Origin: a phage
Sequence record: OZ335962.1
Reading direction: 5' to 3' (one strand)
DNA: 64,000 nucleotides
Shown here: positions 1,910 to 45,201 of the stretch, in pieces
Numbering within the stretch: the first letter of the stretch is position 1
How the letters are laid out: each line of letters opens with the position of its first letter
Made by a program: the position numbers and the translations under genes
Notes under the pieces: generated by a model
Database searches by the model: none
What the model was told of the DNA's origin: nothing
What the model saw: the letters and a program-made list of their open reading frames with translations, nothing else

Positions 1910-2189
1910 ATTGAATCACCTTCAGTTGACGTTTTAGTTCTTTTATCATTTCTTCGTTCATCGCAATATAAAGATCGCGTAAAGCAGGTTTTAACATGTC
2001 ATTTATTATAGAACTAAATGGACATACATAATCTTTTCCTACAAGCTTTTTAGTGAATTCCATATCGCAGAACTTAAATCCCGGTTCATTGGCATAAATT
2101 CCCCAATTAGTTGACATCATTTTATTAGCATATTCCAGTGCCTGGATTTGATTCATAATTCCATCAATTTGAAACTTTTTAATATTCAT
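1893..2189 (-). CDS. Hypothetical protein, 98 aa
   Basis: ORF with ATG; TAATG overlap with upstream gene. Confidence 0.5.
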   Translation of the reverse strand: MNIKKFQIDGIMNQIQALEYANKMMSTNWGIYANEPGFKFCDMEFTKKLVGKDYVCPFSSIINDMLKPALRDLYIAMNEEMIKELKRQLKVIQFGQGN

Positions 2190-2650
2190 TAGTAAAGGTC
2201 CTCAGAGTAAAGTTCTTTTTCACTACCACCGCGTTCAATACGTACTTGTCCTGCGTAAGTTGCAATAATCATTGCTTCTTCACGTGTCCAATAATTACTA
2301 TACTGATCAATAAACCCTTGGTCATCATCACAAACTTGCTGAGTAACTAATTGGGGTTTAACTACATCTAAAACTTCTGCCATATCTTTAGAATAATGAC
2401 GAGCACCTGGAATAACAAGAGTTCGTCCATCTTTTAATTTAAAACGGTTGGCTGCGCAAACAATTCGTCGTTGATATTTTTGATTTTCGTCCCAATATGC
2501 AGACTGCCAACAGATTTCAGGAACTTCTTTCAGAATATCTTCTTCTGTGCATTTATAACCATGCGCTTTAAATTTTTCAACAAGACTTTCTGGAGTTTCG
2601 CGAGATAAAGGAACATTCAGCATTTTTAAACGATTAATAAATGGGTTCAT
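2189..2650 (-). CDS. Hypothetical protein, 153 aa
   Basis: ORF with ATG; coupled to neighbours. Confidence 0.55.
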
Positions 2651-2991
2651 TTAAACCATCCTTTAATACGCTGCCACAAAGTTTTCTGTCGAGCTTTGTT
2701 AACACCAATTGAGCGAATAACTGGTTGAGATTCCTGGAATTCTTTATAATCAGCAAGGTAAATTTCGTAAGCCGATTGAACAAAGGTACTAATCGCTGCC
2801 ATGAAGTTTTTACGTACACCGCCAGGAGCTACTCCGTTGGGTAATTCAGAATTTTCACGAATAATTAAATATAGCCCAGTTCTAACTTTAACAATAGTTC
2901 CAAGATAAGCTCCATGGTACCAGATGTCCCACCCCTCTTGAGTGGGTTCTGCACAACGACGAAGTTCATTAACAATTTCTAACTTGTTCAT
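2647..2991 (-). CDS. Hypothetical protein, 114 aa
   Basis: ORF with ATG and SD GAGGAA. Confidence 0.55.
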
Positions 2992-3001
2992 TATTTATTC
3001 C

Positions 3002-3637
3002 TCACAGTTCAGATGCTACGGTGATTACTGCTTCAATGTTTTCTGCCGAGCGTTTAATGTCAAGATACACATTGCCGTTTTTAGCGATTTTACATGACAT
3101 TCCAATATCAGTAAATTTCTGAATATGGTGTTCCATCATTTTGTATCCAAAAATTCGCATATTTCCATTGTTATTAATTTCAAAATTACGAATTCCGTGA
3201 GTGCGTTTTTCTAAAATAGCAAGATAGTTACTGCGGTAAGTTTCAACCTTTTTAAGAACAAATCCATTTTCATCTAAAAGTTTTAACATGAAGTCTTTAT
3301 CTTCTTCCATATCGGAAGTAATCTCGCGAGCTTTACGAGTTGCTCGTTTTTTCAGTAGTTCAGGAGCATTTTCCTGCGCGTATAAAGTTGCTGCATTTGA
3401 AATAATATCCTGAGCTTCGCCTGTAATGATTAATCCATCACCAGATTTCTCCACCAGGCCTTTTTTAATCAATACCCCAATATTACTATTAACTACTGCG
3501 TTACCTAAATCTGGATGCACCTCACGAACTTCTGCGGCTGTAATGAAATCTTTCTTAGCAATGGTAATTAAAATCGCAGCAGTTTTTTCATTCAGAACAT
3601 CGTTAGAAGCTTTGATGATGTAAGTTACTTTAGACAT
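3002..3637 (-). CDS. motA: Middle-transcription activator MotA
   Basis: 211 aa; matches T4 MotA in length, sequence and position. Confidence 0.9.
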   Translation of the reverse strand: MSKVTYIIKASNDVLNEKTAAILITIAKKDFITAAEVREVHPDLGNAVVNSNIGVLIKKGLVEKSGDGLIITGEAQDIISNAATLYAQENAPELLKKRATRKAREITSDMEEDKDFMLKLLDENGFVLKKVETYRSNYLAILEKRTHGIRNFEINNNGNMRIFGYKMMEHHIQKFTDIGMSCKIAKNGNVYLDIKRSAENIEAVITVASEL

Positions 3638-4256: not shown

Positions 4257-5581
4257 TTGATTTCCTCTAAATCTTTGGTGTATTCTGTAACTACATCAGT
4301 AGTTTTCCAATATTCGTTTTCTTCTTTTTTAGCTTTAGCTTCTTCAGCAAGTTTCTTTGCTTCGTCGGAAGTCATATGAAAAATATTCATTCCAACTAGT
4401 TTATCAACATAAGAAGAATACATATCAATTTTAGAAAGTTCTTCGGTCAGTTCTTTGCGAGTTTTACCCTGCACAACAATTTCATCTGAAATTACTTTCT
4501 TAATGAAATGCGCCTTGGCAAAGGCTAAACGAAATGCTGATTCAGTTTCTTTGATTTTGTTATCAATTCGTTTTTGGACATAAGTTTTACGAACTTCAAC
4601 GAAGTCTTTGATTAAATCAACTACGTTATCGTAAACTTGTAGTTTTCCTTTCTCATTAATAACGGTAATATTCTGGGAACGACGCTCAATCAACCCGAAG
4701 TCTTTCATAATTTTTGCATGGCGTTCTTCTTCGTTATCGCTCAAAGAGTATTCTTTACGGAATTTAACTTTAAAGCCAAACCCGTGCTCACCACAAGCAT
4801 CATCCCACATAATGAAGCCTTTATCTTCAAGCGGGTCTAAGATTTTACTCACATAAGTTTCACGATCATACTTATACGGAATCTCAGTGATATTCATTTG
4901 AGTTCGTGAAGTAAACTTGTACGTTCCACGAATTTCATATTGACCGTCAATTTCAACGACTTCACCGCGAAATTCTGGAAATTCTACCTTCGGTTTAGTT
5001 ACTTTCTTTCCTTGAAGAGCTTGCAATACAGCTTTCTTGACAGAAGAAACACTATGAGGAAGAATATAAGTTGCATAACCAGTTGCAATACCGGAAACAC
5101 CATTAAGAAGAACAGTAGGAATAATAGGCAAATAGAAAGCAGGCGGAATGTGTTCTTTATCTTGATGTACCGGAGCATATTCAGTATCTTTATATACGCT
5201 ATAGAAATTTTTACTTACACGAGCAAAAATATAACGACTTGCCGCTGCTTTTTGAACGGTACGAGAACCAAAGTTTCCTTGACCATCTAACAGAGGAAAG
5301 TTATTATTCCAAGTATTAGCCATCAAAGCACCTGCGTCTTGTGCAGAGTTTTCACCATGATGATATCCAAGGTCTGCTACACCACCTGCAATAGAAGCGA
5401 GTTTGTGAAACTTATCTTTATTTCCTCGTGCCAAATCAAGAGCTCGAGCAATAACAAATCGTTGAACTGGCTTAAATCCATCAATCATATTTGGGATAGC
5501 ACGATTTTCAACCGTGTACATAGCATAAGCCAATGCTTCATTATCAATGATACTTTTTAAATCGCGATTATTCAGTTGCAT
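4253..5581 (-). CDS. 52: DNA topoisomerase II medium subunit gp52 (GyrA-like)
   Basis: 442 aa; matches T4 gp52 in length and sequence. Confidence 0.95.
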   Translation of the reverse strand: MQLNNRDLKSIIDNEALAYAMYTVENRAIPNMIDGFKPVQRFVIARALDLARGNKDKFHKLASIAGGVADLGYHHGENSAQDAGALMANTWNNNFPLLDGQGNFGSRTVQKAAASRYIFARVSKNFYSVYKDTEYAPVHQDKEHIPPAFYLPIIPTVLLNGVSGIATGYATYILPHSVSSVKKAVLQALQGKKVTKPKVEFPEFRGEVVEIDGQYEIRGTYKFTSRTQMNITEIPYKYDRETYVSKILDPLEDKGFIMWDDACGEHGFGFKVKFRKEYSLSDNEEERHAKIMKDFGLIERRSQNITVINEKGKLQVYDNVVDLIKDFVEVRKTYVQKRIDNKIKETESAFRLAFAKAHFIKKVISDEIVVQGKTRKELTEELSKIDMYSSYVDKLVGMNIFHMTSDEAKKLAEEAKAKKEENEYWKTTDVVTEYTKDLEEIK

Positions 5582-27203: not shown

Positions 27204-27830
27204 TTAACCTCTATTCATAAAAGCATTAAAAATTTGGTCATCAATAGAAACATTTACTTTAGACTGTTTTTCTGATGGTAATTCATATCCACATATTACA
27301 ATTTTGTGATCAATATCAAAATACACAGAAGCAATATGATTAATGATGTTTTCAGTAAAGTCTAAATCAACATCAATATCTTTTTGACCACAGCCCAAAG
27401 GATAAATAATGCGAGTAATTCGATTATCTTTAACAAAGATTCCACCGACATACTCTGTGCTGCGTTTAAAATCTACACGCCGACGAAATGAAAAATATTC
27501 AGGCTCTTTATGAGCTCTGCTCATAGGACACAACGAGTAACTAGAATAAGAGATGTCAAATCCTACGCCTTCAATATGAGCCAAAGTATCATGATTAAAC
27601 CAATTATAATCGTACGCCAAATCCATTAGATCATAATATGTAAAAGGCACTGGATTAACATCATTAGTCACAAGCACGTAATTAGCAATTGCTATAATTT
27701 CATTGTTTTTAACGAATACAAACCGTGATTGATGGGAATGACCTGGACCCGCGTTTTCACGATTAATGATATAACACTGAGCACCTTTATATTTGTATGT
27801 ATCTTTACACTTGTGCATTTGATAGAGCAT
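27204..27830 (-). CDS. Hypothetical protein, 208 aa (between primase and spackle)
   Basis: ORF with ATG; no recognisable motif. Confidence 0.55.
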   Translation of the reverse strand: MLYQMHKCKDTYKYKGAQCYIINRENAGPGHSHQSRFVFVKNNEIIAIANYVLVTNDVNPVPFTYYDLMDLAYDYNWFNHDTLAHIEGVGFDISYSSYSLCPMSRAHKEPEYFSFRRRVDFKRSTEYVGGIFVKDNRITRIIYPLGCGQKDIDVDLDFTENIINHIASVYFDIDHKIVICGYELPSEKQSKVNVSIDDQIFNAFMNRG

Positions 27831-30420: not shown

Positions 30421-30765
30421 TTAAAAGAATTTAAATTTTTTCTTTGACCTTTTATTAAATGCATCTTGTAGTTGCATTGTAATACATTTTTCTACATGAG
30501 GAGCTAACTCAGCTTTTCTTTCTTGGTCAAGAACAGCAAAGTCCATTACAACTTTTCCATCAACCCAATCTAATTTTGTCACATACACAATGTGTGTAGA
30601 ACCATCTTCTAATTTAATGACAATCTCCTGGATAACATTTTCCATGGCAGATTTAATTATCTTAAGAGATTCATTAAAAAGACGTTCTTTTCTTTCTTCT
30701 TCCCCCTCCGAAGAGGGGGATTCATCGATAATTTCTAGATCTAAATCTAAATCATCTTTATTCAT
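30421..30765 (-). CDS. 40: Probable gp40 (head assembly)
   Basis: 114 aa from ATG 30765 (track start GTG); acidic N-terminus; locus between 41 and uvsX. Confidence 0.5.
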   Translation of the reverse strand: MNKDDLDLDLEIIDESPSSEGEEERKERLFNESLKIIKSAMENVIQEIVIKLEDGSTHIVYVTKLDWVDGKVVMDFAVLDQERKAELAPHVEKCITMQLQDAFNKRSKKKFKFF

Positions 30766-31939
30766 TAAATTCTTCCATATCACTTAACTGATCTAGGTCA
30801 GTTTCTAAATCAGCTGCTGATTTACTTTTACTTTCTGGAGATTTAAATTTTTCAACCTTTGAGTTAATCAATTCATCAACTTCAGCTTCAACAATTTCAT
30901 TACTATCAATAGCACCTAACTGATAAGCGCGTTTAATAGCATCTCGGAATGGCTGATGCTTAAATAAAGGACCCCAGAATGTAGTGCAGTTGGTATCTTT
31001 TGCACGCCAAGATTTTTCTTCGCGAATCATCTCGCCGGTTTCTTCATCAAGAAATTCACGAGCATACCAGCCATTTTTAGGTTTTACCACAAATCCTAAT
31101 TCAAGAGCCATATCTAACAATCCAGAATAAGGATCGATACCACCGTCAAATTTAACATCAATAAAGAATTTACTTTTTTCTTTAACGGTACGAGATTTTT
31201 CTACATTTAGAACAAACTGATACCCCTGAAGATCTGAACCATCTTTAATCTGGCGCTTACCGATAATGAATACGGTATCAGCCGAATACATTACGCCTGT
31301 ACCACCTGTCATCACGGTTTTACTAAACATTTCAATTGTTTCAATTGTATGGTTAACCGCAACACATGGAATATTTTTAATGCTAAAATAAGGAGTAACA
31401 ATACGGAATAATGACTTCAGTGATTTAGCACGAGTCATATCTGCCACAGATTTTTCATTCAAGGCATCTTCCGTTTCTTTCTTAGAAGCCATATTACCAA
31501 TTGAGTCGATGAATACAATAACTTTTTCACCACGCTCAATAGCTTCAAGCTGATTCACCATATCAATTTTCAGCTGTTCAACTGACTGGATTGGTGTATG
31601 AATTACTCGTTCCGGGTCAACTCCCATGGATCGCAAATAAGCTGGAGTAATACCAAATTCGCTATCATAGAATAGACATACCGCGTCAGGATATTTGTTC
31701 AAATACGCCGCAACCATAGTCAAAGACATATTTGATTTAAAGTGTTTAGAAGGACCTGCAAAAATGGTTAAACCAGACTGCATACCACCATCAATCGCAC
31801 CAGAAATAGCGATATTAAGCATTGGGATTTTTGTACGGATTACATCCTTTTCATTAAAGAATTTAGATGTAGTCAGTTCAGCAGTCATTTTAGAAGTGGA
31901 AGCTTTAATCAAACGGGATTTTAAATCTGCAATAGACAT
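30758..31939 (-). CDS. uvsX: UvsX recombinase (RecA-like)
   Basis: 393 aa; matches T4 UvsX. Confidence 0.95.
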   Translation of the reverse strand: MSIADLKSRLIKASTSKMTAELTTSKFFNEKDVIRTKIPMLNIAISGAIDGGMQSGLTIFAGPSKHFKSNMSLTMVAAYLNKYPDAVCLFYDSEFGITPAYLRSMGVDPERVIHTPIQSVEQLKIDMVNQLEAIERGEKVIVFIDSIGNMASKKETEDALNEKSVADMTRAKSLKSLFRIVTPYFSIKNIPCVAVNHTIETIEMFSKTVMTGGTGVMYSADTVFIIGKRQIKDGSDLQGYQFVLNVEKSRTVKEKSKFFIDVKFDGGIDPYSGLLDMALELGFVVKPKNGWYAREFLDEETGEMIREEKSWRAKDTNCTTFWGPLFKHQPFRDAIKRAYQLGAIDSNEIVEAEVDELINSKVEKFKSPESKSKSAADLETDLDQLSDMEEFNE

Positions 31940-32016
31940 TCATTTTTTCCATAGGCATCATTATATTTTCCTCACTGGTTAAAGATAGAGTAATTATAAC
32001 ACAATAAATTTAGGCA

Positions 32017-32859
32017 TTAATCAACTGCTATTGGATGAATAGCATTAAACTTATGAAACGCTTCTGATTTTTCTTTGCGCGAAACACACATGCGAAGAAC
32101 CTTTAATGGTTCGTCTTCTTCACCCAACGATTTTCTCTTTTCAATATTCAATGTTTTCCAACGAGCTTGCTCTGGAAACTCTCTATTGATTTGCTCAAGA
32201 GCTCTATTATGTTTTGAATTACTACGAATTGAACTGCACCCGCCCGGAGCCTGTGCTTTTCCAGATACAACCAGATATTTGAACAAGGCCAAATGTGGAT
32301 AACCTTGATTAATTAAATTGAGAAATGCATACATATCTTCGCATAAATCAATTTTTCCATACCCAATTTGTTCTGTCGTAAGTTTTCCGAGGTCATACCA
32401 AGTATTCGTGAATCCATATGAATTTTCACGATAATTACCCCAAGATGAAGTAATTTTAAAAATAGGCAGACGAGCATGACCATGATAATACCCGCAATCC
32501 ATGGCATCTTCAACGTATTGAATCAATTCATAGAACTGTTCACGAGTTAATTGATTAATTTTATCTACGCAGCGACGATCATCTTTCTTTCGCATTGAAC
32601 TCATACGAATAGTAGTATCATCATCAATCATCCAAATTCGTTGACCTGCATACATATCAGTAATTGCTTTACGAGTACCAGCAATTCCGTTAACATCATC
32701 AGGAATAGTTATAATTTTAGCTCTAGACCCGTAAGCGTCATAATAAGCCTTTTCTTCATGTTCACGTACTACAATATGTGGTTCATAATCAGTCGGAAAC
32801 ATATCAAGGGCAGAAACTGCCCCTACGCGCTGATAGCTTGGAATTACGAATTGAATCAT
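32017..32859 (-). CDS. Putative GT-A fold glycosyltransferase (where T4 has beta-gt)
   Basis: 280 aa from ATG 32859; N-terminal FVIPSYQR motif and DxD (IDDDT); ATGA coupling with gene 42 stop. Confidence 0.55.
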   Translation of the reverse strand: MIQFVIPSYQRVGAVSALDMFPTDYEPHIVVREHEEKAYYDAYGSRAKIITIPDDVNGIAGTRKAITDMYAGQRIWMIDDDTTIRMSSMRKKDDRRCVDKINQLTREQFYELIQYVEDAMDCGYYHGHARLPIFKITSSWGNYRENSYGFTNTWYDLGKLTTEQIGYGKIDLCEDMYAFLNLINQGYPHLALFKYLVVSGKAQAPGGCSSIRSNSKHNRALEQINREFPEQARWKTLNIEKRKSLGEEDEPLKVLRMCVSRKEKSEAFHKFNAIHPIAVD

Positions 32860-33596
32860 TTCCACTCACCGTTATAATCTTTTTTCGCAATATGAGTTTC
32901 GCCAGTTTTCCACCAATGGTCAACCAAATAAAAATGACGGGAATACACATGAAGGCTTCCGACATTCCATATAATGGAACCTGCTTTATACTGACGAGTT
33001 GAATCACCTGCATTCAAATCAGATACTAATTTATCTAGTACGTATTTTTGCCATGCATAATCATTACGGAATCCGAAGACCACGTCATTTGAACGCATGC
33101 TTACTACTGCATTGACTTTCTTATCACGAATCAGGTACTGTACTGTATTCGTACACATGAAATCTGACATACCATCTTTATTGTAGTCAAACTGCATGGA
33201 TGGACGAGTATAAATCATGATACCGCGTCGAGAATCAGGATTTTGACCAAGTTCAGCTAAACACATATCATACTGGGCATAGTTATCTTCTGACCAGATG
33301 GCCCAACCATAATTCGAGTTAATTTCGCCTTTAGAAGATGCTACCTGTTGCCAAATCTTTGGTGTTTCACCTGGAATATCTTTAACAAACAGACTTTGAG
33401 ACTTATACCATTCAAGTTCACGTTGAATGTATTCATCATTAAGAGCGCCAAAAATAAAAGGTTCATCTGCTACAAATGATGCACCAATAATTTCAATAGT
33501 TTTAACACCAGTTTTATCAATTACGAAATCTTTTTCCTTTAATGCAAGACCCAAATCAAGACGGATTTCTTCAACTGTCATATAATCGTTAATCAT
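32856..33596 (-). CDS. 42: dCMP hydroxymethylase gp42
   Basis: 246 aa; near-identical to recalled T4 gp42. Confidence 0.95.
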   Translation of the reverse strand: MINDYMTVEEIRLDLGLALKEKDFVIDKTGVKTIEIIGASFVADEPFIFGALNDEYIQRELEWYKSQSLFVKDIPGETPKIWQQVASSKGEINSNYGWAIWSEDNYAQYDMCLAELGQNPDSRRGIMIYTRPSMQFDYNKDGMSDFMCTNTVQYLIRDKKVNAVVSMRSNDVVFGFRNDYAWQKYVLDKLVSDLNAGDSTRQYKAGSIIWNVGSLHVYSRHFYLVDHWWKTGETHIAKKDYNGEWK

Positions 33597-33603
33597 TTAA
33601 ACC

Positions 33604-33753
33604 TCAATTGATGCATTCATATTTAACTTGTAACAGTAATAAACCCCAACCTATAATAAGTGTCGGAATCATACAAGGAACCGTTACGCTATAGTATATA
33701 CTTATTATAATCATCAAAATTAAAAGCAATACTGCTAAAATTTTGCTTTTCAT
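33604..33753 (-). CDS. Small membrane peptide, 49 aa
   Basis: Hand translation MKSKILAVLLLILMIIISIYYSVTVPCMIPTLIIGWGLLLLQVKYECIN; ATGA coupling with imm stop. Confidence 0.4.
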   Translation of the reverse strand: MKSKILAVLLLILMIIISIYYSVTVPCMIPTLIIGWGLLLLQVKYECIN

Positions 33754-34001
33754 TCCTTCTCTCTGATGATAATTACTTGGTTTTGCTGTGCAGATTTTTT
33801 AGTTTCACCCGCAATTGACCAAATAAATGTAATAAACCAACCAATAATTGACCAATTAAACAGTAAAGATGTGAAAAAGATTCCTACTGTCGATTTTGAC
33901 CCACGCATCAAGGCGATGAACCACGGAAGCATGTATATAATAATAGCCAACACGCCTGAAACTAAAACCATAAAAATTGAACCTGCTACTAAAGTTTCCA
34001 T
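33750..34001 (-). CDS. imm: Immunity protein Imm (membrane)
   Basis: 83 aa, two TM segments; length and locus as T4 imm. Confidence 0.8.
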   Translation of the reverse strand: METLVAGSIFMVLVSGVLAIIIYMLPWFIALMRGSKSTVGIFFTSLLFNWSIIGWFITFIWSIAGETKKSAQQNQVIIIREKE

Positions 34002-34008
34002 GTTTTCC

Positions 34009-34389
34009 TCACTTAGTCAAATTTTTTACACATGAATTATAAGAATTCACTACATACTCCATTGGAGCATTTTTACCAGTACGCCATTGGTAATTATTAG
34101 CCCAATTAGCCCAAAGTTCGGCGCAGTAGTTTTCAATTTTTTCTTCGCGTGTAATTACATCTGAATTACGATATGCTTGAGCAGATTCATCTGGACGAAT
34201 AGCTTCGTCAAAATTCGCCTGCATTTGTTCTACTGTCTGTTTTGGAGCTTCTTTATAACATTTAACATTAGGATTATAAAATTTGCTTGAACAGTTTACA
34301 ATTTTTCCTGCATCAGACTGATTTACTATCGGTCCTTGAGCTACACATCCAGTAAGACCTAATGCAATAACCAAAATAGCGATTTTCAT
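34009..34389 (-). CDS. Putative lipoprotein, 126 aa
   Basis: Start at ATG 34389 with SD GGAG; lipobox LTGC; track ORF extended through promoter. Confidence 0.55.
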   Translation of the reverse strand: MKIAILVIALGLTGCVAQGPIVNQSDAGKIVNCSSKFYNPNVKCYKEAPKQTVEQMQANFDEAIRPDESAQAYRNSDVITREEKIENYCAELWANWANNYQWRTGKNAPMEYVVNSYNSCVKNLTK

Positions 34390-34415
34390 TTCATTCTCCA
34401 AATTTGTATTGGTTG

Positions 34416-43998: not shown

Positions 43999-45201
43999 TT
44001 ATTTTGTAATAATGTCAAACTGTTCTTTAAAGCAGAAGCTTGAATCTTGATGCTGATACAAAAATTCATAAGCTTTTTCGCGTTCACGGTCATAAAGAGC
44101 TCGGTCAGATGACAGTTCTTTAATACGTTCAAATGTTGATTCCATGTCATTTTCATCAAACCAAACGATACCGCTATCATGTGAAATTAACGGAGTATTA
44201 TCAACACGGAATTTTAAATTTTCACCAGTAGATTTCCAAAATACTGGAATTGTTCCACATGCACCAAGCTCGAGATGAGTATATTCTAAAGAACGCTGTA
44301 GATATTTTTTGTCCAACTTACTCAGCTGATAACCAAATCCGGATTTACTCATGCGTTCAAGCATTTCGCTATTTACATAACGGTCAAGAATTTGCGTTGG
44401 CAAATTAGGAGCAATTTTAATTTGGTCTACTTGATGAAGACGATAATACTCATATGGAATTCCTTTTTCTTTAATAGGAATGAACGCTGGAGAACGTTCC
44501 AGACCTTCCATAATAGTACTTAGCCCAGCAGGTTTAAGATGTTTTTCGTGAAAATCAAACATCTGATAAAAACCTTTCCATGTAGTCGTACGACCAATCC
44601 AACGGTTGACATTCATGTTAATTTCAGAAACATCTTTCCAGTAGGTTGATCGAACCTTAGCAATATCCATAGGAGGCTGAAAGTTGTATACAGTCGGTGC
44701 TTCTTCAATATCGTCAAACAGTGAAACAGTTTCTGGATACCATTCTTTCATCAGAACTTTATTAAAATCACCATTATCAGAATGACTAAAAATAACATCA
44801 GCTCGGCGAACAGTTTCTTCTAATCCCAAATTTCGGCGCAAAGAAAGAGAAGAATGGTCATGTTGATAAACTACAACACGAACCGAAGGTTTAATGTTAT
44901 CAATAATTTTTTTATAGTTATTAATAGTGTCTTCTTCGACTGAAGTAGCAGGAACTGAATTGATAATTAGAATATCACAATCATTTACCAGCTTAAGTGT
45001 TTTATCGTATTCTTTTGCCAATAAAACCGGAATTGAAAATGATTTATAATCATGCGCGCAATTACGGGTAAATGATTTATCTTTAGCATAAACCAAAGTT
45101 ACTTCATGACCATTTTTAATAAACCAATCACGTTGCTCAAGAGAAAATTTAGTTACGCCACAACCTTCAAGACCTCGAGCCATAAAAATGCATACTTTCA
45201 T
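43999..45201 (-). CDS. agt: DNA alpha-glucosyltransferase
   Basis: 400 aa; near-identical to recalled T4 alpha-gt (MKVCIFMARGLEGCGVTKFSLEQRDWFIKNGHEVTLVYAKDKSF...). Confidence 0.9.
   Translation of the reverse strand: MKVCIFMARGLEGCGVTKFSLEQRDWFIKNGHEVTLVYAKDKSFTRNCAHDYKSFSIPVLLAKEYDKTLKLVNDCDILIINSVPATSVEEDTINNYKKIIDNIKPSVRVVVYQHDHSSLSLRRNLGLEETVRRADVIFSHSDNGDFNKVLMKEWYPETVSLFDDIEEAPTVYNFQPPMDIAKVRSTYWKDVSEINMNVNRWIGRTTTWKGFYQMFDFHEKHLKPAGLSTIMEGLERSPAFIPIKEKGIPYEYYRLHQVDQIKIAPNLPTQILDRYVNSEMLERMSKSGFGYQLSKLDKKYLQRSLEYTHLELGACGTIPVFWKSTGENLKFRVDNTPLISHDSGIVWFDENDMESTFERIKELSSDRALYDREREKAYEFLYQHQDSSFCFKEQFDIITK

Follow-up and report, generated by a model that had tools for sequence, protein, structure and literature searches.

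The gene lying between uvsX and gene 42 in the window, that is, in the whole 64-kb stretch of phage DNA analysed here (genome roughly 167 kb), can be assigned with high confidence as an intact beta-glucosyl-HMC-alpha-glucosyltransferase of the T2/T6 type (ba-gt; TAGT, TET-associated glycosyltransferase, Pfam PF20691), a small GT-A enzyme giving gentiobiosyl-hydroxymethylcytosine (gentiobiosyl-hmC). Orthology, synteny, integrity of the gene, GT-A fold, conserved residues and partner genes were obtained in this analysis, and nothing in the sequence stands against this identity.

The gene, its neighbours and its relatives

The ORF list gives a minus-strand frame at 32017..32865, of 282 aa when counted from a GTG, in which an ATG at 32859 opens a 280-aa protein with the N-terminus MIQFVIPSYQRVGAV. 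This ATG shares an ATGA overlap with the TGA stop of gene 42 (junction …GAGTGGAAATGATTCAA…) and corresponds to the annotated start of the T2 and PP01 orthologues; on both grounds the GTG start at 32865 was dropped. The length, the coordinates and the neighbours are thus those given by the original prediction, to which the strand is added here (Table 1). The GC content of the gene (0.36-0.38) is the same as that of its surroundings. A scan of positions 31800-34100 returned 11 promoter-like sites where 10.2 were expected, and 2 terminator-like sites where 1.1 were; this does not exceed chance, and no claim is made on regulation.

Table 1. Position of the ba-gt gene, its motifs, its flanking genes and its partner genes in the window.
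Feature	Position	Strand	Evidence or remark
ba-gt / TAGT gene, beta-glucosyl-HMC-alpha-glucosyltransferase, 280 aa	32017..32859	minus	
FVIPSYQR, aa 4-11	32827..32850	minus	First beta-strand, GT-A nucleotide-binding half; last residue is the family-invariant Arg11
DDD, aa 79-81, DxD motif directly after strand 74-78	32617..32625	minus	Translation and model
ED, aa 174-175, opens helix 174-184	32335..32340	minus	Translation and model; putative catalytic-base role of Asp175
Segment without DNA homology to T4, 946 bp	31928..32873	.	blastn breakpoints: T4 homology ends at 31927 and restarts at 32874
uvsX, downstream flank of the cassette	30758..31939	minus	PF21134 at 4.7e-39 and PF00154 (RecA)
Gene 42, dCMP hydroxymethylase, makes the hmC precursor	32856..33596	minus	PF00303, thymidylate synthase fold
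alpha-gt, DNA alpha-glucosyltransferase, makes alpha-glucosyl-hmC, the ba-gt acceptor	43999..45201	minus	PF11440, E = 5e-236; PHROG 2888
Gene 56, dCTPase/dUTPase, keeps unmodified C out of phage DNA	25220..25831	minus	PHROG 173 at 2.3e-46

The window protein is identical over its full length to the T2 (280 aa), T6 and PP01 proteins at 98%, 98% and 99% of positions, respectively. It matches PHROG 842, named beta-glucosyl-HMC-alpha-glucosyltransferase, over residues 1-275 (E = 1.3e-88) and Pfam PF20691 with 38.8 bits, the gathering threshold being 27.5; this last match places residues 3-207 on profile positions 2-205 of 205, i.e., on the whole domain. Moreover, the order uvsX, ba-gt, gene 42 is the same in T2, T6 and PP01, and the window runs collinear to both T6 (96.1% DNA identity over 5 kb) and T2 (96%). 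A megablast search with the locus retrieved 540 phage records, 473 of which cover at least 80% of the query; they belong mostly to Tequatrovirus phages of Escherichia and Shigella, and many of them name the gene beta-glucosyl-HMC-alpha-glucosyltransferase. Since a 25-kb stretch around ba-gt is also about 97% identical to many Tequatrovirus genomes, the window can be regarded as part of an ordinary Tequatrovirus genome.

The partners of ba-gt, namely alpha-gt, gene 42 and gene 56, are all found within the window, in agreement with the original prediction as far as the first two are concerned. Along its entire length, the alpha-gt product matches T4 alpha-GT (PDB 1XV5; E = 7e-257), and the name gp42 is given at the equivalent position in the PP01, T2 and T6 annotations. 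Gene 56 occupies the same position as in PP01 and falls in PHROG 173, a family of nucleoside triphosphate pyrophosphohydrolases; its true start probably lies inside the GTG-initiated ORF listed in Table 1.

A few small features of the surrounding region can be recorded. Between imm and gene 42, a strongly hydrophobic ORF of 49 aa (MKSKILAVLLLILMIIISIYY...; 33604-33753, minus strand) matches PHROG 3610, of unknown function, at 1.2e-25, and the equivalent gap of about 150 bp is left without annotation in the T4, T6, T2 and PP01 records. Between spackle (sp) and the primase gene 61, an ORF of 208 aa (27204-27830, minus strand) matches PHROG 3781, also of unknown function, at 8.6e-135; at this position PP01 annotates the shorter genes 61.2 and 61.1, which indicates a variable accessory slot. 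Furthermore, the interval between imm.1 and gene 43 is about 280 bp longer in T2 (AP018813.1, locus 4656-4935) than in the window (34390-34411), the extra T2 stretch including the small ORF T2_046, and in the same intergenic region the T6 record AP018814 carries an 'attL' feature, so that this is another small variable spot.

The original prediction had described the protein as unlike the T4 beta-glucosyltransferase (beta-gt), and had proposed an alignment against both the T2/T6 enzyme and T4 beta-gt as a check. The 98% identity to the former contrasts with the absence of any similarity to the latter by BLASTP (best E = 3.4). Likewise, the window protein does not match PF09198, a profile that T4 beta-gt itself matches at 9e-98, and tblastn over the whole 64-kb window retrieved neither T4 beta-gt (best E = 1.3) nor segA. 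At the DNA level, homology to T4 is interrupted for 946 bp across this slot, and the T4 counterpart of the interrupted segment is 1,941 bp long and holds segA and b-gt according to the T4 annotation; across the same segment the window remains collinear with T6 and T2. Another gene does therefore occupy the slot, as had been proposed. The wording 'in place of' T4 beta-gt, however, reverses the usual state: the arrangement typical of Tequatrovirus combines alpha-GT with TAGT, T4 being the exception (NAR 2026, PMC13216743), and alpha-GT together with beta-GT occurs in only 6 of 753 phage genomes encoding glycosyltransferases (PMC13216743), a picture consistent with the 540 records retrieved here.

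Fold and conserved residues

The window protein adopts a GT-A fold, as originally predicted and in line with the assignment of T6 TAGT to this class (PMC13216743). In the model it forms a single Rossmann-like alpha/beta/alpha domain, structurally similar to solved GT-A enzymes, in which the FVIPSYQR segment lies on the strand formed by residues 3-7, and the DDD triplet, the sole D-x-D in the 280 residues, directly follows the fourth strand (74-78) at the canonical GT-A DxD site, where metal binding is putative. Both motifs had been named in the original prediction and are present in the translation. The alignment depth required for modelling was supplied by an exhaustive HMMER search, which gave 333 representative homologues at E <= 0.001, many of them at 20-30% identity; a word-indexed protein search had given only 11 relatives.

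Conservation was examined on an alignment of 85 full-length homologues with 20-78% identity to the query. Four positions are invariant (R11, D80, D175 and G207) and nine are nearly so (I6, P7, R63, I66, D79, D81, G186, G206 and R212), with D79 and D81 conserved in at least 90% of the sequences; every one of these residues is present in the window protein. A search of the PDB chains by sequence, also performed with the family profile, gave no match, and no member of the family has a solved structure, so the roles of residues can be described only by analogy. From this perspective, the DDD triplet would presumably hold the metal-UDP moiety, and the invariant Asp175, whose ED pair opens helix 174-184 in the model, would probably serve as catalytic base, on the pattern of inverting GT2 enzymes.

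Predicted DNA modification and its extent

The chemistry and the phenotypes considered here come from the literature on orthologues. By the established T-even route, the pathway would start with gp56 and gp42, which would exchange dCTP for hm-dCTP, so that the DNA is built with hydroxymethylcytosine; after replication, alpha-gt would add an alpha-linked glucose to most hmC residues, and ba-gt would then transfer from UDP-glucose a second glucose, beta-1,6-linked to the alpha-glucose, to yield gentiobiosyl-hmC. As a beta linkage is formed from an alpha-linked donor (UDP-alpha-glucose), the reaction is inverting. That TAGT/ba-gt attaches the second glucose in a beta-1,6 linkage is documented (PMC13216743; PMC11078745), and glucose transfer by the orthologues onto alpha-glucosyl-hmC DNA is attributed to Kuno and Lehman (1962, as cited in PMC13216743). 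Since no beta-gt was found in the 64-kb window, the DNA of this phage should carry hmC, alpha-glucosyl-hmC and gentiobiosyl-hmC, without beta-glucosyl-hmC. A beta-gt in the remaining part of the genome would be improbable, T4 having its own at this very locus and alpha-GT being rarely combined with beta-GT (6 of 753 genomes, PMC13216743).

This expectation agrees with the data available for related phages. LC-MS of Tequatrovirus phages possessing alpha-GT and TAGT has revealed 5-hmdC together with its alpha-glucosylated and alpha-gentiobiosylated derivatives; the beta-glucosyl form was not found (AEM 2026, PMC13390438). Moreover, the DNA of a T6 mutant deleted of ba-gt is degradable by Brig1, a glycosylase acting on alpha-glucosyl-hmC, and the mutant itself shows increased sensitivity to Brig1 (Nature 2024, PMC11078745), as is to be expected if alpha-glucosyl-hmC alone remains. 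The T2/T6-like pattern of the original prediction is thus supported as regards the kinds of modification, but the term covers very different amounts: T2 DNA has about 70% alpha-glucosyl-hmC and gentiobiose on about 5% of cytosines (PMC11078745; about 5% also in PMC13390438), T6 DNA about 3% and about 72%, respectively (PMC11078745). The enzymes of the two phages being about 98% identical and their gentiobiosyl contents about 14-fold apart, the extent of the second glucosylation is not predictable from sequence.

One position deserves attention in this respect. Residue 11 is a histidine in both T2 records (AP018813.1, locus 2283-3125, minus strand; LC348380.1, locus 2295-3137, minus strand) and an arginine in the window, in T6, in PP01 and in 85 of the 85 aligned TAGT homologues. 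This distribution suggests that T2 may encode a weak form of the enzyme and that the phage of the window would belong to the T6 type. As a tentative proposal, possible but doubtful in its full form, the window allele would be fully active, producing a T6-like phage with mostly gentiobiose on its glucosylated hmC, and the change from Arg11 to His would be the cause of the difference between T2 and T6. This candidate explanation concerns T2 more than the window phage; it was not found stated in the literature, which was not searched systematically for it.

The same enzyme could instead make a small contribution in the window phage, leaving T2-like DNA with mostly alpha-glucosyl-hmC and a few percent of gentiobiosyl-hmC, in which case restriction and glycosylase sensitivity would in practice be those of an alpha-glucosyl phage. 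The T2 gene, for all its 98% identity, accompanies a low gentiobiosyl content, and the Durham phages carrying the same gene pair split into two classes, one with a ratio of about 1:2:2 and the other with about one third hmC and two thirds gentiobiosyl-hmC (PMC13390438). We nevertheless consider this outcome unlikely, because the window has the family arginine at position 11 and not the histidine of T2; if His11 does weaken the T2 enzyme, the window allele would be of the active type.

A TAGT-family enzyme could also differ from that of T6 in donor sugar, linkage or acceptor. TAGT proteins are diverse, some accompanying alpha-GT, others beta-GT and others neither, so that specificities vary in the family (PMC13216743), and many of the 333 homologues share only 20-30% identity. 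A departure of this kind is highly improbable here, given that the window protein is 98-99% identical over its full length to those of T2, T6 and PP01, from which it differs by a handful of substitutions, none at conserved positions, and that neither the synteny nor the set of partner genes differs.

Equally remote is a decayed or inactive copy: lesions do arise in laboratory stocks, and two T6 records carry one each in ba-gt, but the window ORF is full length, its Q10 codon, its DDD triplet and all conserved residues are intact, and, like the annotated orthologues, it has a start coupled to the stop of gene 42.

As regards those records, gentiobiosyl-hmC has T6 as its reference phage, and the two public T6 sequences carry different ba-gt lesions. 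In MH550421.1 (locus 2138-2980, minus strand) codon 10 is an amber codon (CAG to TAG), and the CDS is annotated from Met20 with 261 aa; in AP018814.1 (locus 2135-2974, minus strand) one Asp of the DDD triplet is missing (MIDDTTIR), leaving 279 aa. These lesions may reflect mutations of particular stocks or errors in sequencing, and the truncated form may have served as query in published surveys, the published query being YP_010067197.1.

For the gene read as an intact T2/T6-type ba-gt, the practical value lies in annotation: together with alpha-gt, it predicts which of the modified cytosines the DNA contains, and the proportions in this phage are inferred. The predicted pattern matters for sensitivity to several defence systems and also bears on which restriction enzymes digest the phage DNA in the laboratory. 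All three forms, hmC, alpha-glucosyl-hmC and gentiobiosyl-hmC, are cut by GmrSD/BrxU-like Type IV enzymes. The gene pair is the commonest arrangement in Tequatrovirus genomes and is common to hundreds of sequenced T4-like phages; publications already cover the ba-gt gene, the place where it lies, the class of its fold and the consequences for restriction and glycosylases, and no new biology is added here.

Comparison with known glycosyltransferases

T4 beta-gt (PF09198, PDB 1JG7) resembles the window enzyme in its chromosomal slot, from uvsX to gene 42, and both take glucose from UDP-glucose and attach it to modified phage DNA by a beta linkage (PMC13216743). They differ in sequence, with no detectable similarity, in fold, GT-B for T4 beta-gt and GT-A for the window protein, and in acceptor, which is the hydroxymethyl group of hmC for T4 beta-gt and the glucose of alpha-glucosyl-hmC for ba-gt; in addition, the T4 locus holds the homing endonuclease gene segA. 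Cellular GT-A enzymes, mainly inverting GT2 members (AvpGT, 9JMA; TarS, 5TZE; SpsA, 1H7L) and a GT27 GalNAc-T (8V9Q), share with the window protein the fold, a DxD that follows strand four, and an acidic residue with which a helix of the acceptor half begins, whereas sequence identity is only 7-15% and the acceptor of the window enzyme is a glucose borne by DNA. The ba-gt of T2 and T6 agrees with it in length (280 aa), in 98% of positions, in occupying the slot that uvsX and gene 42 flank, in the start-stop overlap and in the partners alpha-gt, 42 and 56; the differences amount to a few substitutions, such as Leu237 in the window for the Ser of T2, T6 and PP01, and to residue 11, at which T2 departs from the arginine shared by the other three.
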